A stretch of DNA of 64,000 nucleotides from an uncultured Gemmatimonadales bacterium. GTDB taxonomy: Bacteria > Gemmatimonadota > Gemmatimonadetes > Longimicrobiales > RSA9. The stretch is from positions 832,001 to 896,000 of the forward strand of contig OY970192.1 of the NCBI GenBank assembly GCA_963708135.1. The letters run 5' to 3'. The translations under genes and the position numbers were made by a program. Positions 1,807 through 11,600 of this stretch are shown here, one piece after another (position 1 is the first letter of the stretch; each line of letters starts with the position of its first letter). The notes below the pieces were generated by a model. The model had not been told where the DNA came from. It saw only the letters and a list, made by a program, of their open reading frames with translations, and did not search any database.

Positions 1807-2256
1807 TCATTCAGAGTTCAGCGGAGACTGACTGGCAACTTGCGTCGATTCCGAGAATTCCCATGCCTTAAAAGTAATCTCGATCCACGAGTAGCCCTCG
1901 CGGCGAAATGACGCTTTGTAGCTGGGCCCGGTCAGCCGTGAACGAACCAAGGCTCCAGCATCTTCGACTCGAAGGCAAGCGATTTCGCCGAAGCCCCAAC
2001 CAAGTGATGCCTCCTTCTGCATCACTGAGTCAGAGAGTTCGTTGATAACGTGCAGTTCACTCACGCCGCAGAAGCGGATTGACACAATACGCCGGTCAGC
2101 GTATTGGGTCCGAATCGTTCCATCCTCCTGCCACACGAAGTCAATGTCGATGCTGAGGGACGCGCCCCAGTTCAGCCACTGGACGCCGACAACAACACAC
2201 TCCTCGAAATCGCGGTACGCGTGAAGCTCTGCTCTCAATACAGGCAATCCGCTCAT
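1807..2256 (-). CDS. Putative immunity protein for toxin tip 1
   Basis: 149 aa, ATGA overlap with stop of upstream Rhs-CT ORF, visibly lower GC. Confidence 0.7.
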   Translation of the reverse strand: MSGLPVLRAELHAYRDFEECVVVGVQWLNWGASLSIDIDFVWQEDGTIRTQYADRRIVSIRFCGVSELHVINELSDSVMQKEASLGWGFGEIACLRVEDAGALVRSRLTGPSYKASFRREGYSWIEITFKAWEFSESTQVASQSPLNSE

Positions 2257-4205
2257 CGATTCCAGATGTTAAGATGCGTGGTCGCGTTGGGACCAGGGTT
2301 ACCCAGCGCGTCGAGATAGTTGCGAGCTGCATTCATGATGCGCAGTTGCCAACCATTTTCCCGCCGCATTAAGCGAACTTCTTCGCCCGTTCCATTCGTG
2401 AAAAGGTAGCCACTCTTATTCTCCGTCAGTCCCATCACAAACCCGTTCTCTTTCAGAATTGCGCGAATTCCAATGATCGACTCATCCGCAAGTCCGCCTC
2501 CCTCCGAGAACAGCGCGCGTAGCCCGGCGCTCGCTCCCCGTAGCCCCCGCCCGACGGCACCACCACCCACCGTGAATGCCGCCATTGCGAAGCCGCGTCC
2601 GGCGTGACCACTCCCGATATCGAAGCCAGCATCAAACGCTGCGGTGATCGGATTGACATCGTTGATCGCATTCAACCCAGCTGCGGCATTGAGCACCACG
2701 CCGCCCAGGCCACCGCCACGCTGCGCTCCCCAATTTGCCGCTTTCTGCAAGCAATCTTCAATCGGCGGGCACAATCCGAACGGGTCGGTATAAGACGCGG
2801 GGTTGTTGCCCGCATACGCATAGAGGTTAAGCCCGCCGGCAAATCCGATGGGGTCTTCCTGCGTGAACCTCCCCAATCTGGCGTCGTAGTAGCGGTTGCG
2901 GAAGAAGGCTCCGGTCTCCTGGTTCGAGTCGCCGTTGCGGGCGGGGGCGAAGCTGTAGCTTTCGCGGATGGCACCCGACTGCGAGCCCCAGGTACTCCAC
3001 GCCGGGAGCTCGTTTCCGTTCGTGTCCGTGATGCAGTTCTCGCCCTGCGGGCCCTGGAAGCTGAACAGTCGTTCGCGATGCGTGATGAAATATGCGCGCT
3101 TGTCGTTCAGGCTGCCGAGGGGACACGCAGCGTTGCCGTACATCATCAGCGGGTCGTCGAGCCCCGGCCCGTCCACGAACTCGACCGTCGAGTGCTCGAT
3201 CACGTTCTGACCATCGTAGAAGGTCTCCGCGCCGGAGTGGGCATAAGCGCCGCGGATCCGCCGGCCCAGGCCGTCGTAGCGGAAGAAGGCGGTATCGGGG
3301 TGAGTGCCGGAGAGCTGGCCGGCGGCGCTGTAGTAGCGGTGCCAGGTGTAGGCGGTCCCGGCGTAGGTGCCCTGCTCGAGCGTCTCGTTGCCGTTCGCGT
3401 CGTAGCTGAAGTCGACGCTCTCCGGACCGGAGACGCCGCTGTAGTAGCGGGTCCGGCGGGTCACCTCGTTCGAGAGGCCGTCGAGCTGGAAGAGCACGCT
3501 GTCGGCGCACAGGCTGCCGCGCACGCACAGGTACTCTTTCACGCGGTTGCCGGCCGCGTCGTAGACCATGCTGTCGGTCGAGGACGTCCCTCCAGGGTGG
3601 CTCTGACTCGTATAGCGGATGCGCCCGCTCCCGTCGTAGGCCCAGCGGTCCACCCAGGTCGCGTTATTGGTCTCGTTGCCGCGGTTGACGACCGAATCAG
3701 GCCGCCCAGCGGCGTCGTAGGCGAAGCTCAGGTCCACGGCGGTGTCACCGCTCGTGGCGTTGACGGAGATGACGCGCGCGATCTGCCCGTCTTTCGTGTA
3801 ACCGTAGCTCGTTTTCGTGGTGTTGGGCAGCCAGACCGTGTCGCGCCGCCCGAGCGCGTCGTAGTGGAACGAGATCATCTCGCCAGCGGGCGTCTGGATC
3901 TGGGAGACGAGCCCGCCCGGCCCGAGGGTGTAGGTGTACGTCCCCTTCGGCGTGCTCAGCGTATGGCGGCCCGCCCACTGATAGGCCGAGCTGTAGGTGC
4001 GCTGCGTGCCGGACCACTTGTGGAGCTGCGTGCTTGAGGCGAGGGTGCCTTCCTTGTTGAAGACCCGCGTGACCTGCGAGCTGTCCTCATCGAGCATGGT
4101 GACGTTACCGGCCGCGTCATACTGGAGGTTGATCGTCGTGCCGACCACGCCGAGGACGCCATTCTGGTAGGTGGATGAGAGGACGCGCTGCTTCGGGCGA
4201 TTCAC
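2253..4205 (-). CDS. 5'-truncated (orphan) Rhs core with toxin tip 1
   Basis: YD repeats, RYYD...GRFTQEDPIG...NPASYTDPFGL core end, unique C-terminus; no signal peptide; copy of the main Rhs. Confidence 0.8.
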   Translation of the reverse strand: MNRPKQRVLSSTYQNGVLGVVGTTINLQYDAAGNVTMLDEDSSQVTRVFNKEGTLASSTQLHKWSGTQRTYSSAYQWAGRHTLSTPKGTYTYTLGPGGLVSQIQTPAGEMISFHYDALGRRDTVWLPNTTKTSYGYTKDGQIARVISVNATSGDTAVDLSFAYDAAGRPDSVVNRGNETNNATWVDRWAYDGSGRIRYTSQSHPGGTSSTDSMVYDAAGNRVKEYLCVRGSLCADSVLFQLDGLSNEVTRRTRYYSGVSGPESVDFSYDANGNETLEQGTYAGTAYTWHRYYSAAGQLSGTHPDTAFFRYDGLGRRIRGAYAHSGAETFYDGQNVIEHSTVEFVDGPGLDDPLMMYGNAACPLGSLNDKRAYFITHRERLFSFQGPQGENCITDTNGNELPAWSTWGSQSGAIRESYSFAPARNGDSNQETGAFFRNRYYDARLGRFTQEDPIGFAGGLNLYAYAGNNPASYTDPFGLCPPIEDCLQKAANWGAQRGGGLGGVVLNAAAGLNAINDVNPITAAFDAGFDIGSGHAGRGFAMAAFTVGGGAVGRGLRGASAGLRALFSEGGGLADESIIGIRAILKENGFVMGLTENKSGYLFTNGTGEEVRLMRRENGWQLRIMNAARNYLDALGNPGPNATTHLNIWNR

Positions 4206-4207
4206 TC
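2844..4207. repeat. 1,364-bp near-identical copy of 9207-10570
   Basis: Constant offset 6363; only difference noticed is 3556 G vs 9919 T (YDAAG vs YDEAG). Confidence 0.9.
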
Positions 4208-4697
4208 AGGACGAGGTACGTCTCCTCCTCGAGCTGCTGGCGATGTACGACCGGCAGATCGCGGCCGTGGAGGAAGCGATGGTCTTCGCCCTCCGTCGGG
4301 CCCCGGAGGCGAAGGCGCTGATGTCGATCCCCAAGCTCGGCGCGGTCACCGCGGCTGTCTTCCTGGGTTCGATCGGCGATCCGAGGGCGTACGAGTCGAG
4401 CCGGCAGGCGCTCCGCGTGGGTGGCCTCTCATTGGTCGTGCAGGAGAGCGGGCTGCTCCGCGGCAAGCCGCGCCTCAGCAAGCGGGGCCGGCCCGAGATG
4501 CGACGGCAGGCGTACATGTTCGCGGCCGCAGCGTGATGAAGGGTGGGCTCTACCGGGAGGCGTTCGACCGCGCCCTGGCCGAGAACCCGCAGAAGCCGAA
4601 GAAGAAGATCCTGGTGGCCCTGGCGCGGCGCGCCACGAAGCTCATGTTCAGCGTCGCGCGGGACCGGAGGCTGTACACGCCGGATGGCCCGAAGTAG
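4208..4697 (+). pseudogene. IS110-family transposase C-terminal fragment, frameshifted near 4527-4536
   Basis: SIPKLGAVTAAVFLGSIGDPRAYESSRQ...ESG...LSKRGRPEMRRQAYMFA, then in another frame SVMKGGLYREAFDRALAENPQKPKKKILVALARRATKLMF...PK*. Confidence 0.9.
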
Positions 4698-4975
4698 GAT
4701 TCCGGCAGGTGAAAGAGCGGAAGGGCTGCGGCATCCTGCCGAGCCCTCCCGCGAGCACCAGACGCAGGCTGGAGAGTGGAGCCGGCAATCCATCGAAGGA
4801 GTTGCAGAAGCGCTCGGCGCCGCAGCTCGCTTCCGAATGCTGGAACGCTCCCTCCGGCCCAGAGCCCGCTCAAGTCTCCGAGGAAGGCGTGTCGAGGACC
4901 CTCCGGGGTGCCTCCAAGGAACTGAGGGTATCGAGCTACGCGAGCCCGAGCGGTCTGGGTGCGATTTGACAACTC
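4698..4975 (+). ncRNA. Bridge-RNA-like structured noncoding region, copy A
   Basis: Directly 3' of IS110 gene; blocks conserved with 7653-7949; closing stem GCACCAGAC(4755)/GTCTGGGTGC(4953); two internal-loop hairpins. Confidence 0.65.
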
Positions 4976-5028
4976 CGTATACTACCTGCCGAGACCCCGA
5001 CCGGGCGGTCGCGGCACCAGTGGCGCGT

Positions 5029-5215
5029 GCCCGGCGTGGACCCGCCATGTCCCTTGAGGCGGCGTTGCCGGCCTCCGATGGTGGACTCGGTCACGTCGGG
5101 CAGCGCGCTCTTTCACGTCAAACACCCACCGACAGCGCTGCCCGGCATGGGTCCGACAATCCGGTTGAGGCGCGTCCTGCGGCCTCCGATACCGGACTCG
5201 ATCATGCCGGGCAGC
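5029..5215 (+). repeat. Two 73-nt hairpin units with variable internal loops (A1 5029-5101, A2 5140-5212)
   Basis: Scaffold GCCCGGCRYGG..CCGA-N10-GAGG(hairpin)CCTC-N7-GGACTCGRTCRYGYCGGGC. Confidence 0.85.
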
Positions 5216-5220
5216 TTCGG

Positions 5221-5622
5221 CTACCGCCTGACCGGTTCACCGTCGATGCTTACGCCGCGGGCGATGACGACGAGCGACGCAGCATCATCGAAGTATAGGC
5301 GGTAGCGCGTGATTGGAGGGCGCGGCACTGTCTCGTGCCAACCCACTGAAGTGTTCCAACGAGCCTCCAGCTCTTGAATGTCGGCGGCAGCTGTCTCAGC
5401 CACGATGTAGTCCGGTCCGATGACGTCTTCTTCTACGCAGACGGCGCCCGCCGTGTATTCGACCCGAAGCACGTCGGAGAAGGTGACTTCGGTCCATTTC
5501 GTCTCTCCTTCTTCAGTAGTGTCGTACCGAACCGTTGCGAAGCCTTCGGACATGTTCACGACCGGACCAGCCAGCGTGTGACTGGTGCGGCGTGGCAGAT
5601 CAATCAAGGTCGTCATGTTCAC
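5221..5622 (-). CDS. Putative immunity protein for toxin tip 2
   Basis: 133 aa, GTGA overlap with tip 2 stop; lower GC. Confidence 0.7.
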   Translation of the reverse strand: MNMTTLIDLPRRTSHTLAGPVVNMSEGFATVRYDTTEEGETKWTEVTFSDVLRVEYTAGAVCVEEDVIGPDYIVAETAAADIQELEARWNTSVGWHETVPRPPITRYRLYFDDAASLVVIARGVSIDGEPVRR

Positions 5623-6124
5623 CTGATTACAGGGGTGAACGTCGGAGATGCAGAGCCCGCCATCTCAGCGAGGCGTTCCGTTAGCTGCCTCTCAAACATT
5701 GCATTGCCCGTAACATTGTTGATTACGGTCGGCCTCATGCCCGCGATCCTCAACGCCATCAGCGAGCGGTTGTTCATCGTGTACGACACGCCATCTCGAA
5801 CAACGACGTTTAGGGGCAGCTGACTTGGTGTGATCGCACCGCTTCTCAGGCCGGCCGCCACATCAGAGATCGACTGACCTGCAAACTCGCCGTGACGGAA
5901 GCTCGACGAAATACCCCTCTGGGCGAACTGTACCGCTCCCTCGTCAGCGGCTGCGGTGGCGACGCTGCGTCCGATCAGTGCTCGGATCCCGCCTGCGATG
6001 CCGCCTGCGAGAAACGCTACCGGATCTAGCAGACCAGGGCCACGGAGACCTGGTTCGTGTCCTGGACACCCCGTATGCCACTCAGTCTCCGGAGGGCACA
6101 ATCCGAAGGGATCGGTATAGGAGG
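5619..6124 (-). pseudogene. Orphan Rhs toxin tip 2, ParB/Srx-like toxin domain
   Basis: Begins SYTDPFGLCPP with no Rhs core; FAQRGISSSF...L..G.I.P.QLPL.V...G..Y..NNRSL.AL..AG resembles Tox-ParB-like domains. Confidence 0.75.
6112..6124. repeat. 13-bp direct repeat TCGGTATAGGAGG, left junction (partner 9148-9160)
   Basis: Exact match at both ends of the 3,036-bp unit. Confidence 0.85.
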
Positions 6125-6440
6125 GACGCCTCTAACCCAATGCGCCCCGATTCGGCCTCCGATCAGCCTACCTCCGACGCCACCTCCCGCCGTCTCAATC
6201 AGCCCTCCTGACACCCTCCCGAACAGCGAAACCCTTCACCATACCACCCGCAGCTCCACCGCCTCAGGCGGGGTCGACTGCCTTCCATTCACCCGGATTC
6301 CGCGCCCGATCCTGGCGGTGATACGGTTCCGGGTTCCGCCTCCGTCCCGGCGGCCCCGGCTCAGAGCGCCATAGAGCACGATTCCGCCATCGGTGCGGCC
6401 CACGGTACCGCTCTGGTCCACTTCAACCAGGAGCGAGACC

Positions 6441-7652
6441 ATGAGCCGTTTCGAGAAGCGCCGCCGGGCCCAGCGCGCCGCCGCCGTCGCCGGAGTGGAC
6501 GCGGGCAAGCGGAAGCACGCGATCGCGGTCCGGCCGCGCGGCGGCGAGGATAGCACGCCGCTCGAGTTCCAGACGACGCGAGCCGGCTTCGAGACCGCGG
6601 TCCGCGCGATCCTCGAGAACGCTCCGGGCACACGACCCGAGGACGTGCTGGTCGGCATTGAGTTCGCCGGCAACTACGGCTTCACCTTCGCCCACTTCCT
6701 GCGCGACCGCGGCTTCCAGGTCGTGAACGTGCTCGGCGCCCACAGCAAGCGCTGGAAGGAGGTGGTCCACAACCAGGGGCTGAAGAGCGACCCCAAGGAC
6801 GCGCTCACGATCACCGACATGGTGGCGCAGGGCGCCTTCGTCGGCTTCCCGTTCCTCGAGCAGGTCTACGCCGACCTGCGCTACCTGGTCAGCATGCGCG
6901 AGCGGCTGACGAAGCTCCGGAGCGCGACGATCGCGCGGCTGAAGGACGTGCTCCAGGTCGTCTGGCCGGAGTTCGAGCGGCGCTTCAAGAACTTCAGCAA
7001 GAAGACGCCGATCGCGATCCTGGAGGCGTTCCCCGGGCCGGATGCGTTCCTGCGCGCACCGAAGCGGCGCGTGCTGAAGGTGATCCGGGAGGCGAGCCGG
7101 GGTCATCTGGGCGAGGCCGCCTACGAGCACCTGCGGTGCGCGGCCGAGGACACCGTGGCGCTCCCCGGCGCGCAGGGCGTGCTTGCGCAGGAGGTCGGCC
7201 TCCAGCTCGATCTGCTCGCGTCCTACGAGCGCCAGATCGCCGAGGTCGAGCGCCTCATGGCCGAGCGGCTGGTGGACGCGCCGGAGGCGCCCTCGCTCCT
7301 CTCGGTGCCGAAGCTCGGCGCCGTGACGGCCGCCGTGTTCCTCGGCTCGATCGGCGACCCGCGGGCCTACGACTCGAGCCGGCAGGCGCTCAAGGTCGGC
7401 GGCCTCGGGCTCGTCGTGAGCGAGAGCGGCGCCCAGCGCGGCCGGCCCGAGCTCCGGCGCCAGATGTACATGTTCGCGGTGCGGAGCGTGAGCCGGGGCG
7501 GCCTGTTCCGGGCGGAATACGAGCGGGCGCTCGAGCGCAATCCGAACACGCCGAAGAAGAAGGTGCTGGTCGCGCTCGCGCGGAAGGCGACGCGGCTCAT
7601 GTTCGCGCTCGCGAAGGAGCGGCGGCTGTACACGATGGAACCGCCGCGGTAG
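6441..7652 (+). CDS. IS110-family DEDD transposase/recombinase
   Basis: GVDAGK, GIEFAG, KSDPKDA (DEDD), SVPKLG HhH, ESG serine loop, KKKVLVALARK; AGGAG before ATG 6441. Confidence 0.93.
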   Translation: MSRFEKRRRAQRAAAVAGVDAGKRKHAIAVRPRGGEDSTPLEFQTTRAGFETAVRAILENAPGTRPEDVLVGIEFAGNYGFTFAHFLRDRGFQVVNVLGAHSKRWKEVVHNQGLKSDPKDALTITDMVAQGAFVGFPFLEQVYADLRYLVSMRERLTKLRSATIARLKDVLQVVWPEFERRFKNFSKKTPIAILEAFPGPDAFLRAPKRRVLKVIREASRGHLGEAAYEHLRCAAEDTVALPGAQGVLAQEVGLQLDLLASYERQIAEVERLMAERLVDAPEAPSLLSVPKLGAVTAAVFLGSIGDPRAYDSSRQALKVGGLGLVVSESGAQRGRPELRRQMYMFAVRSVSRGGLFRAEYERALERNPNTPKKKVLVALARKATRLMFALAKERRLYTMEPPR

Positions 7653-7949
7653 GTTGGGGGAATCAACACCATGGGAGGGCCGGCTGGCGCGGTGCGCGCC
7701 GGCCCTCCTACAGTGCACCAGACGCAGGCCGGGGGATGGAGCAGAAGAATCCATCGAAGGGGCCGTCTCGCACGAACGTGAGGCCTGCTTCCCAAGGTCG
7801 GACCCGCTCCCCCTGACCCAGAGTTCGCCACAGTCTCCGAGGAAGGCGTGTCGAGGGCCACGCGCGGCAGACGCCGCCACGGTGCCTCCGAGGACTTGAG
7901 GGTATCGAGCTACGCGATCTCGAGTGGTCTGGGTGCGATTTGACAACTC
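7653..7949 (+). ncRNA. Bridge-RNA-like structured noncoding region, copy B
   Basis: Closing stem GCACCAGAC(7715)/GTCTGGGTGC(7927); conserved AATCCATCGAAGG and AGTCTCCGAGGAAGGCGTGTCGAGG with variable-length hairpins. Confidence 0.65.
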
Positions 7950-8006
7950 AGCGCTTGCCTTCGCCGTCGCGGCGTCGAGCCGGCCGCGACGGAACGGGTG
8001 GCGTGT

Positions 8007-8293
8007 GCCCGGCGCGGATCCGACATCCAGCCTGAGGCGGCCCAGCCGGTCTCCCATGATGGACCTGATCGCGTCGGGTACGCTCTTCCTCATGGGCATC
8101 GGCGCCGGCATGGATCCGAGAACCCGGACGAGGCGCGTTCTGCGGCCTCCCATGTGGGACTCGGTCGTGCCGGGCCGCACCTCCCCGCCGGGCTGGCCAA
8201 CGGGGAGGTGAGCGGAACGGGGCCGGTGTGGATCCGATAATCCGGTCGAGGGGTCACGGACCGCCTCCAACATCGGACTCGATCGCACCGGCC
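8007..8293 (+). repeat. Three 73-nt hairpin units (B1 8007-8079, B2 8103-8175, B3 8221-8293)
   Basis: Same scaffold as A1/A2 with compensatory stem changes and distinct loops. Confidence 0.85.
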
Positions 8294-8670
8294 TATTTCT
8301 TTCGCCGCATCGATTCCTCTGTTTGGCTACAGACCGCGGTCATCGCTGGCCCCATGTACGACCGGGCAGTTTTCATCCAGTCCGAATTGTCGGTTAGCCT
8401 CTCGCAAACGCTGAATGCGGCAATCTCCTGCACCTTCGGATCCGGATGGGCGGCCAGTATTTCGAGGGAGTCGAAGACTCTCCGAATCTCGGCCCCGTCA
8501 TTCCGCTCGATCGCGGCGATAAGATGCGGGGTGAGCAGATCACCATAGATGATGTGAGGGCCGGGACGTTCAGTGCCCCACCATTCCAGTTCTTTTTCGT
8601 ACTTTTCCCTCAACTCTGGTATGCTGGTGATCAAGTGATCCACAACAGTCTCGTATTTGATCTCTGTCAT
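8293..8670 (-). CDS. Putative immunity protein for toxin tip 3
   Basis: 125 aa, TGATG coupling to Rhs stop, lower GC. Confidence 0.75.
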   Translation of the reverse strand: MTEIKYETVVDHLITSIPELREKYEKELEWWGTERPGPHIIYGDLLTPHLIAAIERNDGAEIRRVFDSLEILAAHPDPKVQEIAAFSVCERLTDNSDWMKTARSYMGPAMTAVCSQTEESMRRKK

Positions 8671-11600
8671 CAGTGCCCTCGAAGTGCATTCTGGAGGTCC
8701 GTAAGAACTCGCTGGGCGGTTGTTCGGTCGGCAGCGCTGAGCTCCTCCTGCTGAAGAATTCGTTGAAGCTGACGGGCACGCTGTTGGCCCTTGAGAAGAT
8801 GCGACCGGCCTCCCACGAGTTCACCGGTCCGTAGCTCCTCCCTGATTGCTCCAGCGGTCCCGCCAGGTAGCTTGTCGCCCGCACGGAACAGTTGCTCGAT
8901 GGCGCCTTGGAGGCGTGCGTTAGCGGCTGCCGGGATCTCATTCGCGAAGGCCCCGTACTGACGAATACGATTTGCATTTCGCAGTCCCTCAACAAGACCC
9001 CCTCCCACTGCTCCGAGGGCGGCGTCTGTGATTCCCTGGGAGAGTGTATAGTCCCCCCCGAGCGCTTTCGTGATAAGGTAACCCTCGGCGACACCTACAA
9101 CGGCACCTGCGGCGATTTCAAAGCAGATCGGGCAGAGTCCAAACGGGTCGGTATAGGAGGCCGGATTATCCCCGTTGTAGCTGTAGAGGTTGAGCCCGCC
9201 CGCAAGTCCGATGGGGTCTTCCTGCGTGAACCTCCCCAATCTGGCGTCGTAGTAGCGGTTGCGGAAGAAGGCTCCGGTCTCCTGGTTCGAGTCGCCGTTG
9301 CGGGCGGGGGCGAAGCTGTAGCTTTCGCGGATGGCACCCGACTGCGAGCCCCAGGTACTCCACGCCGGGAGCTCGTTTCCGTTCGTGTCCGTGATGCAGT
9401 TCTCGCCCTGCGGGCCCTGGAAGCTGAACAGTCGTTCGCGATGCGTGATGAAATATGCGCGCTTGTCGTTCAGGCTGCCGAGGGGACACGCAGCGTTGCC
9501 GTACATCATCAGCGGGTCGTCGAGCCCCGGCCCGTCCACGAACTCGACCGTCGAGTGCTCGATCACGTTCTGACCATCGTAGAAGGTCTCCGCGCCGGAG
9601 TGGGCATAAGCGCCGCGGATCCGCCGGCCCAGGCCGTCGTAGCGGAAGAAGGCGGTATCGGGGTGAGTGCCGGAGAGCTGGCCGGCGGCGCTGTAGTAGC
9701 GGTGCCAGGTGTAGGCGGTCCCGGCGTAGGTGCCCTGCTCGAGCGTCTCGTTGCCGTTCGCGTCGTAGCTGAAGTCGACGCTCTCCGGACCGGAGACGCC
9801 GCTGTAGTAGCGGGTCCGGCGGGTCACCTCGTTCGAGAGGCCGTCGAGCTGGAAGAGCACGCTGTCGGCGCACAGGCTGCCGCGCACGCACAGGTACTCT
9901 TTCACGCGGTTGCCGGCCTCGTCGTAGACCATGCTGTCGGTCGAGGACGTCCCTCCAGGGTGGCTCTGACTCGTATAGCGGATGCGCCCGCTCCCGTCGT
10001 AGGCCCAGCGGTCCACCCAGGTCGCGTTATTGGTCTCGTTGCCGCGGTTGACGACCGAATCAGGCCGCCCAGCGGCGTCGTAGGCGAAGCTCAGGTCCAC
10101 GGCGGTGTCACCGCTCGTGGCGTTGACGGAGATGACGCGCGCGATCTGCCCGTCTTTCGTGTAACCGTAGCTCGTTTTCGTGGTGTTGGGCAGCCAGACC
10201 GTGTCGCGCCGCCCGAGCGCGTCGTAGTGGAACGAGATCATCTCGCCAGCGGGCGTCTGGATCTGGGAGACGAGCCCGCCCGGCCCGAGGGTGTAGGTGT
10301 ACGTCCCCTTCGGCGTGCTCAGCGTATGGCGGCCCGCCCACTGATAGGCCGAGCTGTAGGTGCGCTGCGTGCCGGACCACTTGTGGAGCTGCGTGCTTGA
10401 GGCGAGGGTGCCTTCCTTGTTGAAGACCCGCGTGACCTGCGAGCTGTCCTCATCGAGCATGGTGACGTTACCGGCCGCGTCATACTGGAGGTTGATCGTC
10501 GTGCCGACCACGCCGAGGACGCCATTCTGGTAGGTGGATGAGAGGACGCGCTGCTTCGGGCGATTCACTCCGTCGTACTGGATCGCGACGGTGCTGCTGT
10601 CGCGGTTCCTGCGGAGCGTCAGGTTGCCGGCGAGGTCGTAGGCATGGAACTCCGTTGCTCCCATCCCATCGATCATCGCGGTATCCTCGCCCAGCGCGTT
10701 GTAGTGCCAGCTGCGGGAAAAGGTCATGCGCGGGTCGACAGCCGTTGTCCGGTCGCCATCCGCGTCGTACGTGAAGTGGCTCGCACGTCTGTAGACGCCG
10801 TCGTAGTGATCCACCTCGGTGAGATTCCCCAAGGCGTCATGCACGTAGGTCAAACTGTCGCCAACGGGATTGGTCACCCGCCGAACCTGGCCGTTGGCGT
10901 CGTACGCGTAGCTCGTGGTGTGACCCTCGGGCGTGGTGCTCGAGAGCAGGTTGCCAGCATTGGAATCGTCGTTGGCGAGGATGGTGCTGAGATCCTGCAC
11001 GGTATCGCCGTAGACAGGTACCGACTGCTCGGTCACGCTCGCGACCTGGCCGCGCGAGTTGTAGGTGAAGCTGGTCTCGTGACCACGCGGGTCGATGACA
11101 TTGTCGAGCGTCCCGTCCGTGGAGCTGTAGTTGAAGGTGGTCGTGTCTCGGGTCGCGCCCGAGCGCGGTGCGATGACCTTCCACGGTTTGTCGGGTGCGG
11201 CGGTCGAGTAGAGGTAGACTGTGGAATCCGCGCCCGCGCTGGATGTGAGGTCCGCGGCGTTCCGAACGCGGCCGACGACGTCGTACGCAGTGGTGGTCTG
11301 GCGGCCGTTCGGCCAATCGACCTCCTTCGGCAGCAGCGGGAAGTTGGAGTCGTACGTCAGCACGGTGGTGTTGCCCACGGCGTCGATGATCCTCGTCGGT
11401 GCCCCGAAGCGGTCGAGGTAGAACTTCGTGATCTGAATGGTGTGGGTGCGCGGTCCCCGCACCTCGAAGTCCGCGCTTGCCGCGGCGTAGGTGTCGTTCA
11501 GCCCGGTCGCGGTCGTTGCGAGGCCGAGAGTCTGGAGAGGAGTGAACGTTGTCACGGGTGTGCCGGCGCTGACCGTCGGCAGCGTGTCGGCCGCGAGCAG

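Follow-up and report, generated by a model that had tools for sequence, protein, structure and literature searches.

The window analysed here, a 64,000-nucleotide (nt) stretch of contig OY970192.1 from an uncultured Gemmatimonadales bacterium, carries on its forward strand an insertion sequence of the IS110 (DEDD) family, to which we refer as element B. It extends from a left end at ~6126 through a transposase gene (6441–7652) to a right end at ~7945–7947, and the gene lies between two long non-coding ends, one of 315 nt (6126–6440) and one comprising the 297 nt after the transposase stop codon (7653–7949). The latter region, which an earlier note on this DNA had put forward as a bridge-RNA candidate, is the subject of this report. 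The transposase has 403 amino acids (aa) and contains the Pfam domains DEDD_Tnp_IS110 (PF01548, E 8.9e-24) and Transposase_20 (PF02371, E 7.7e-10). Its only sequence matches in the PDB are IS621 (8wt6, E 1.5e-9) and ISCro4 (E 1e-8), in the C-terminal part. All features of the element and its RNA are given on the forward strand unless stated otherwise.

The genome contains six matches to the 7653–7949 region, and transposase sequence adjoins the RNA region in all six. Besides B itself, these are copy C, which lies outside the window and is 100% identical to B in the RNA region; copy D, also outside the window and 70% identical; copy A within the window (4738–4975), 73% identical over query positions 46–297; and two remnants, a 60-nt fragment (E) and a 3′ fragment (F). 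Copy A is a 5′-truncated, frame-shifted second copy at ~4205–4975, and copy C is split by another insertion sequence; A, E and F are fragments.

The left boundary at ~6126 was set by three lines of evidence. Homology to intact rhs core/tip junctions is lost exactly there (...GGTATAGGAGG followed by CCGGATT in intact rhs genes vs ...GGTATAGGAGGG followed by ACGCC in B). Homologues with unrelated left flanks converge on a conserved motif, AC[N]CCT[AC]T, which in B takes the form ACGCCTCT and starts at 6126. The third line is covariation with loop 2 of the RNA, described below, which confirms the boundary proposed in the earlier note; the first six nucleotides of the left end are the right-donor half-site that this loop matches. 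At the other side, similarity among copies A, B, D and F and all 39 homologues of the alignment described below ends at TTTGACAA(C/T), corresponding to 7939–7947 in B. This right terminus, TTTGACAAC, contains TTGACA. The element probably ends at 7945, followed by a core-like AC (7946–7947), a repeat suggested by comparison with the intact rhs junctions. No terminal inverted repeats were found. When the first 42 nt were searched against the last 60 nt for exact inverted repeats of at least 7 bp, eight of the nine elements compared, B included, had none and copy D had one 7-bp pair.

Structure of the predicted right-end RNA

Homologues were collected at three levels. Among 201 genomes of the same order, the transposase was detected by protein search in seven, the present genome included, and a scan of species-representative genomes gave ten loci, eight of which, at ≥53% identity, belong to metagenome-assembled genomes of Gemmatimonadota or Longimicrobiales. 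Scanning metagenomes with the transposase alignment yielded 74 loci; once 16 duplicates had been removed, these provided 45 downstream regions with a length of 200 nt or more. Six of these were left out: fragment E, two loci too distant to align (L013, L085), one with its 3′ part replaced (L010) and two truncated by a contig end (L033, L049). The final alignment holds 39 non-redundant downstream regions in 296 columns, with a mean identity of 57% and transposase protein identities of 45–100%.

RNAalifold predicted 26 base pairs from this alignment, eight of them with compensatory change, and two helices recognised by eye were added, so that 33 pairs were counted. The paired state is observed in 92.9% of cells, against 29.8–52.3% when the 3′ partners are slid by 1–3 columns. 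Eleven pairs have changed on both sides (3–5 when slid), the covariation score is 0.206 (at most 0.102 when slid), and there are 72 double-change cells compared with 19.8 in shuffles. None of 500 shuffles matches the observed values (three of 500 for pair types).

The conserved core spans 7713–7937. Upstream of it, the first ~45 nt after the stop codon lack sequence conservation between copies A and B, which beyond that point are conserved in blocks. By eye, compensatory changes preserve a GC-rich hairpin directly after the stop codon (7673–7708) in the closest relatives; distant ones lack it. The core is closed by the stem P0, in which 7713–7727 pairs with 7924–7937. This stem is present in all 39 homologues in spite of 28 distinct 5′ segments, as illustrated by CCAGAC/GUCUGG in B, CGGCUGGC/GCCGGUCG in the largest clade and CCCGGC/GUCGGG in the L012 clade. 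Its mean duplex energy is −18.1 kcal/mol vs −13.4 kcal/mol for shuffled tails, and in 19 of the 39 sequences it ranks among the best 5% of that sequence's own shuffles.

Two domains lie within the closing stem. The outer stem of domain 1 consists of P1 (7729–7733 with 7812–7816; 96.4% paired) and P1b (7738–7742 with 7806–7810), a poorly aligned helix that is 62.6% paired. It leads to an internal loop (loop 1) with the 5′ side AGAAGAATCCATC (7743–7755) and the 3′ side CCAAGGTCGGACCC (7792–7805), capped by the P2 hairpin (7756–7791; stem 7756–7763 with 7783–7791, apex 7764–7782). P2 is 98.7% paired and has changed on both sides in five of its eight pairs (18, 13 and 16 sequences). Domain 2 repeats this plan. 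Its outer stem is formed by P3 (7825–7828 with 7914–7917; 98.1% paired, one pair with eight double changes) and P4 (7832–7840, AGTCTCCGA, with 7905–7911; 98.5%), followed by loop 2, with GGAAGGCGTGTC on the 5′ side (7841–7852) and CGAGGACTTGAGGGTA on the 3′ side (7889–7904). The cap is the P5 hairpin (7853–7888; 93.6% paired), in which GAGG (7853–7856) pairs with CCTC (7885–7888) below a variable apical stem (7857–7884). The apical stems differ in length between the copies: in B the P5 apex has 28 nt and the P2 apex 19 nt, in A 13 nt and 22 nt, respectively.

The two loops differ in how freely they vary. Column entropy in loop 1 is 1.41 bits on the 5′ side (29 distinct sequences among the 39) and 1.32 bits on the 3′ side (30 distinct), vs 0–0.56 bits for the stems; in loop 2 it is 0.59 bits (5′) and 0.79 bits (3′). 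The same RNA region in copy A (4699–4975, core 4753–4974) has the loop 2 5′ side of B and a different loop 1.

The earlier note had described block-wise conservation 3′ of both transposases, a closing stem and two internal-loop hairpins with inner stems of variable length. All of this is borne out, the first by the comparison of A with B and by the six matches in the genome. Folding and aligning the copies together with homologues, as the note had suggested, revealed a covarying structure.

Loop 2 and the donor site

The earlier note had seen a resemblance between AGGCGTGTC, at 7844 and again at 4885 in copy A, and AGGCGTCCC, on the minus strand at 6131–6123; both strings lie where it placed them. 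The contiguous match is longer than it had recognised. In B, 6 nt of the genomic left junction can pair with the loop 2 5′ strand AGGCGUGU(C), 7844–7852; the match grows to 8 nt when the right-end AC (7946–7947) is placed before the left end and to 9 nt when GAC is (GAC+ACGCCT). The segment AGGCGTGT (7844–7851), complementary to AC+ACGCCT, is thus the predicted right-donor guide; as a guide for the top strand, it occupies the 5′ side of the loop and has its 3′ end at the crossover.

We compared the 11 nt before P5 with the start of the left end at the 27 loci for which both were available. The centre of the loop 2 5′ side covaries with the left-end start in 26 of them, in three complementary states: GGGGU/ACCCCT at 17 loci, GGAGU/ACTCCT at seven and GGCGU/ACGCCT at two (B and L032), with L043 as the exception. 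The longest Watson–Crick run to the right-end GAN joined to the left end averages 7.3 over the 27 loci, compared with 4.21 for 372 cross-clade pairings, and reaches 9 in B, D and L035.

A permutation test of all four loop strands against four half-sites in two senses (32 combinations, 28 loci, 1000 label permutations) gave one clear signal, for loop 2 5′ against the left end in the complementary sense (own 5.36, permuted 4.39, p<0.001). Three weaker signals, which may be inflated by the relatedness of loci, fail correction for 32 tests: loop 2 5′ with the left flank in the same sense (p=0.005), loop 2 3′ with the right flank in the complementary sense (p=0.009) and loop 2 3′ with the left flank in the same sense (p=0.012). 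Because of the covariation at 26 of 27 loci and the permutation result, we assign loop 2 as the predicted donor-binding loop, in agreement with the earlier note, and regard the left boundary as fixed.

The 3′ side of loop 2 is less informative. The TTGA within it recurs in the right end (TTTGACA), and its terminal GAGGG matches the last bases of the left flank (by eye). The right end hardly varies, so no permutation signal is possible for this pair, and as it is near-invariant and near-palindromic (TTGACAA), the sense and covariation of a pairing between the two cannot be judged. The AGGA to which the earlier note had drawn attention lies within this side (7891–7894) and amounts to a 4-nt AGGA/TCCT match.

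Two models of the joined ends were compared, ...TTTG+AC and ...TTTGACA+AC. Loop 2 favours GAC directly before the left end (mean run 7.3 vs 5.96), and right-flank homology to rhs (CG... after GACAAY, by eye) favours ...TTTGACA+AC instead.

Other likenesses between loop 2 and the surrounding DNA were seen. The GAGGG at 7899–7903 equals the last left-flank bases (6121–6125), and same-sense likenesses of the 3′ strand to the left flank occur in two other clades (GGCUAC with GGCTAC; UGAGAG with TGTGAG). Such a likeness may mark a target contact of the handshake type. In another, unusual reading, which we consider unlikely, the loop 2 3′ strand reads the left flank, with donor and target guides mixed in one loop. 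In the largest clade (L041, L054, L068, L078 and others), the first ~35 nt of the left end open with a hairpin, ACCCCTAT...ATAGGGGT, followed by CGAGGGTC, which repeats the loop 2 5′ strand and the P5 strand of the RNA (GGGGTGTCGAGGGTC) and may be a duplicated or decoy half-site. Element B does not have this left-end hairpin.

Interpretation and alternatives

The region 7653–7949 is likely the right non-coding end of an IS110-family element, encoding an RNA of ~225 nt (core 7713–7937) of the bridge RNA or seekRNA type. The conserved two-loop structure and the complementarity to the donor point in this direction, as the earlier note had anticipated for an RNA 3′ of the transposase. The RNA would comprise a closing stem and two domains, each built of a stem, an internal loop and a variable hairpin cap. 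Circularisation would create the donor site, in which the right-end AC is followed by the left-end start ACGCCT, with the loop 2 5′ strand complementary to its top strand. By analogy with IS621 and the IS1111 seekRNAs, the DEDD recombinase would bind the RNA, loop 2 would hold the joined ends and the hypervariable loop 1 the target, and the recombinase would exchange strands at a short core. The hypervariability of loop 1 fits a programmable target loop. Of the four guide–DNA pairings to be expected, only the one between loop 2 5′ and the left end could be demonstrated.

A number of observations weigh against this interpretation. Loop 1 shows no match to a target: its longest runs, complementary or in the same sense, to the element's own left and right flanks average 3.7 vs 3.68 for shuffled sequences, and runs of at least 6 occur at one of 27 loci vs 3.9% of shuffles. 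Comparison with intact rhs junctions in the same contigs (ten loci, one with a 10-nt junction) did no better than shuffles, and comparison with the REP-like palindromic units beside the elements no better than controls; bipartite tests were weak and gave no consistent site. For the 3′ strand of loop 2, the match to the right end is limited to TTGA in B (UUUGAC, 6 nt, in the D clade), and the complementarity of loop 2 to the left end is equally an inverted repeat at the DNA level. Single-sequence folding energy is unremarkable (z=−0.89 for B, −1.31 for A), a scan for consensus promoters and terminators found neither, and no Rfam family matches the RNA region at the gathering threshold. The only match in the window at that threshold is a transfer RNA elsewhere; with E up to 10, the Rfam matches in 4000–8700 were all at chance level. 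In ISPpu9, according to the part of PMC12288879 that describes it, the small RNA downstream of the transposase is not the guide. Finally, transposase B itself carries an in-frame 24-nt deletion at ~7434/7435, between short direct repeats, which is absent from copy C (411 aa). It removes eight residues, RGRPRLPK, which are present in all ten aligned homologues and belong to a conserved SG...R(I/L)SKRG stretch. Since B has this deletion and a low Transposase_20 score (39.5 bits vs 69.3 for copy D), while both domains of the D transposase are intact (PF01548, E 4.2e-20; PF02371, E 3.7e-19), B may depend on a D-type enzyme or be inactive.

The earlier note had read loop 1 as target-like on account of AATCC. 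This motif, at 7748–7752 on the 5′ side, is a 5-nt identity with the flank at 6100–6104, and the claim found no support: runs equal those of shuffles, as given above, and all 16 permutation tests of loop 1 gave p>0.17. A match-frequency matrix brought out no register, and the same loop 1 was found beside different flanks and the same flanks with different loop 1 sequences. Bipartite matches of loop 1 in the 330 nt to the right of the element showed small excesses, for the top strand in the order [s5][s3] with p=0.009 including stem letters and p=0.77 excluding them, for the bottom strand in the same order with p<0.001 and p=0.005, respectively. We rejected these as a target because the sites are scattered and the loop 2-side control also gave p=0.048. 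Nor did we rely on matches picked out by eye, namely GCGGCAC in loop 1 of copy D to the adjoining REP-like unit, the L068 5′ side to its right flank (10/11) and the L044 and L061 3′ sides to the consensus rhs flank.

The complementarity between loop 2 and the left end could also be read at the DNA level, as an inverted repeat recognised by protein at the element ends, with the stems as DNA or messenger RNA features unrelated to guiding. Any complementarity within one element is an inverted repeat by definition, covariation cannot separate RNA–DNA pairing from a repeat read by a protein dimer, and IS1111 elements do have subterminal inverted repeats according to excerpts from PMC11208160. However, the repeat in B lies 94–101 bp from the right terminus and hence is not subterminal; it falls exactly in the 5′ strand of an internal loop, between stems with compensatory changes; and no other inverted repeat of at least 7 bp links the ends in eight of the nine elements. 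The match moreover extends across the joined ends (8–9 nt with AC or GAC vs 6 nt in the genome), which is sensible for a circular junction only. We therefore consider a purely DNA-level repeat very improbable. A further reading, likewise very improbable in our judgement, is that the RNA is an accessory small RNA such as Ssr9 of ISPpu9, or a regulatory 3′ untranslated region, with the true guide in the 315-nt left end. The element does have two long non-coding ends, loop 1 is matched to no target, and in ISPpu9, as described in part of PMC12288879, the bridge RNA lies upstream and the downstream small-RNA module is dispensable and moves on its own. Against this, the genome holds no solo copy of the RNA apart from transposase sequence, and the left end shrinks to a leader of ~100 nt in the largest clade, whereas the 3′ RNA is kept in all 39 homologues; two-loop architecture and donor complementarity, besides, are the defining traits of a bridge RNA. 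That the region is protein-coding, or a GC-rich spacer with chance folds, hardly deserves credence. It does contain an 81-aa open reading frame (7654–7899), and the z-scores of its minimum free energy are unremarkable, but conservation follows base pairs and not codons (72 double-change cells vs 19.8 expected), hairpin apices vary freely in length, and the blocks are kept across homologues with 45–70% protein identity.

Insertion site in rhs genes

The left flanks were translated outward from the left boundary, on the strand complementary to that of the element. Among 50 distinct flanks, 30 contain x-(Y/F)-(T/S)-D-P-x-G-(L...) in frame within 12 residues of the boundary, and in 28 of these 30 rhs-type flanks the boundary is exactly 12 nt from the GGATC of the DP codons (DPxGL). 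The flank of B reads PSYTDPFGLCPPETEW... The motif is the end of the Rhs core, ahead of the variable toxin tip, and seven intact junctions in the same genome read NPASYTDPFGLC. The predicted insertion site of the family is thus the rhs core/tip junction, between N-P and x-Y-T/S-D-P-x-G-L; it lies 12 nt upstream of these DP codons, and the element is inserted on the opposite strand to rhs. The genome yielded no empty target site. Other left-end-like variants, ACCTCTAT and ACATCTAT, occur at the same 12-nt distance from the DP codons of neighbouring tips (L054:~3416, L079:~3829, L035:~4113), and the sequences therefore suggest that several related lineages besides that of B use the rhs site. A further group of flanks, VSHDTRLIFG..., looks by eye like a decayed version of the motif.

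On its left, element B adjoins an orphan rhs toxin tip on the minus strand (5619–6125), whose translation runs P S Y T D P F G L C... in descending coordinates from 6125. The genome has a paralogue of this tip at another locus, where it is joined to an rhs core. The right flank of B is not rhs core, and in L046 and L068 the 15–20 nt beside the element look, by eye, like a remnant of the core end. At 13 loci an intact rhs junction in the same orientation lies 1–2.5 kb to the right of the element. Along the rhs strand, the core is usually followed by its tip, an immunity gene, REP-like units, a short spacer, the inverted element, an orphan tip and an immunity gene. The window shows this order with rhs (13796–8670), a DUF7674 gene (8670–8293), REP-like units (8292–8009), element B, the orphan tip from 6125, an open reading frame (5622–5221), further REP-like units and copy A. 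The gene at 8293–8670 (minus strand), which follows the main rhs tip, matches DUF7674 with E 2.8e-17 and presumably encodes the immunity protein; Pfam has no match for the orphan tip (5619–6101) or the next open reading frame (5221–5622).

Three REP-like units of ~75 nt each, starting at 8009, 8105 and 8223, occupy 8009–8292 to the right of the element (forward strand). They follow the pattern CCGGCGYGGATCCG...GAGGCG...CGGCCTCC...GATCGCG.CCGGG, which recurs at 5031–5220. In nearly all of the 39 homologues, which come from different metagenomes, units of this kind are separated from the right end by a spacer of 10–60 nt. They are ordinary genome repeats: the strict pattern has 71 matches genome-wide, 37 on one strand and 34 on the other.

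This arrangement raises a broader idea, which we consider unlikely: a lineage of RNA-guided IS110 elements may have specialised on the rhs core/tip junction in one orientation, each copy heading an orphan toxin–immunity module located behind the active rhs gene. The copies would then act as fixed sites of recombination, at which precise excision would allow tips to be parked, exchanged or attached again. If this were true, a bridge-RNA element would drive the turnover of toxin cassettes. In the literature searched, no paper combines bridge RNA with Rhs, and among the papers listed on Rhs and IS110 none bears by its title on rhs targeting; one of them reports no more than an IS110 copy within a transposase gene.

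Copies and element ends

Several features of the copies are recorded here as observations in their own right. The transposase gene of copy A breaks off near residue 250, where it is joined without a gap to a 5′-truncated rhs body on the opposite strand (2253–4205, 650 aa, RHS_repeat); at a paralogous locus in the genome, the rhs body is joined to half a REP-like unit instead. In both rearrangements the end points coincide with the element or lie close to it. The left end of copy C is the same as that of B, with a 1.44-kb element inserted ~190 bp in (L106:276–1711) that encodes a 444-aa Mutator-family transposase (PF00872, E 1.2e-64) and is flanked by an apparent 8-bp direct repeat.

The TTGACA of the right terminus (7940–7945) equals the −35 consensus of sigma-70 promoters. 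It faces outward, an arrangement known from the junction promoters of insertion sequences that circularise; in the left end, no −10 partner was seen at the proper spacing.

Comparison with known systems

The DEDD and Transposase_20 domains, the site-specific insertion and the lack of any terminal inverted repeat found are features of the IS110 family. The earlier note had called the element IS1111-type, which holds for the RNA downstream of the transposase and for the guide order, and not for two other features. IS1111-group elements share the longer downstream non-coding region, but excerpts from PMC11187229 give their transposases 330–350 aa, compared with 403 aa here, and they have subterminal inverted repeats (7–17 bp), of which none of at least 7 bp is present in eight of the nine elements. 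Element B is a member of the IS110 family and not a typical IS1111 element. It fits better with the IS110-type elements that have a downstream non-coding region (Siddiquee et al. 2024), with which it shares a large transposase (395–455 aa in that subgroup, as given in part of PMC11187229) and the 3′ non-coding region; it was set against them by description only.

A guide RNA downstream of the transposase is known from IS1111-type and some IS110-type elements, as stated in parts of PMC11187229, and excerpts from PMC11208160 put predicted bridge RNAs in the right end of 93% of IS1111 elements. The seekRNAs or right-end bridge RNAs of ISEc11, ISPa11 and ISKpn4 (Siddiquee et al. 2024, PMC11187229; Durrant et al. 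2024, PMC11208160), as far as these excerpts describe them, resemble the RNA of B in lying in the right end, 3′ of a DEDD transposase, and in carrying the segment complementary to the top strand 5′ in the loop; their elements likewise insert site-specifically into repeated host sequence. In contrast, element B also has a long left end (315 nt), the donor loop and the second loop lie within one closing stem of a ~225-nt core, and the target is an rhs coding junction instead of the REP sequences, attC sites or Tn21 ends described for IS1111.

With the bridge RNA of IS621 (PDB 8wt6–8wt9), the RNA shares two hairpin-capped internal loops, one of which reads the joined-end donor including the crossover bases, and the IS621 recombinase is related to transposase B over the C-terminal domain. 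However, the IS621 RNA lies in the left end, upstream of the gene, and has no sequence or Rfam similarity to the RNA described here. The guide order also differs: a top-strand guide 5′ in the loop is the order of IS1111-type seekRNAs (PMC11187229, in part) and the reverse of that in IS621 (PMC11208160, in part). ISPpu9 and its Ssr9, in the part of PMC12288879 concerned with them, present another likeness: the element belongs to the IS110 family, lies among REP sequences and has a structured small RNA 3′ of its transposase. Ssr9 is dispensable, occurs in solo copies and is not a guide, whereas the RNA of B has a donor-complementary loop and no solo copies were found in its genome.

The kind of RNA proposed here is itself known. 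The present example would add a structurally defined and well-supported 3′ bridge RNA, from soil bacteria of the Gemmatimonadota type, to a class discovered in 2024. The rhs motif junction, between NP and xY(T/S)DPxGL, is hit with single-nucleotide precision across many metagenomes, and the element would be a natural example of a guide RNA that directs a recombinase to a polymorphic-toxin locus. Loop 1 offers a concrete means of testing how RNAs of this kind recognise their targets. The combination of an IS110-size transposase with an IS1111-like RNA placement and guide order should make this family useful for tracing the move of the RNA between element ends.

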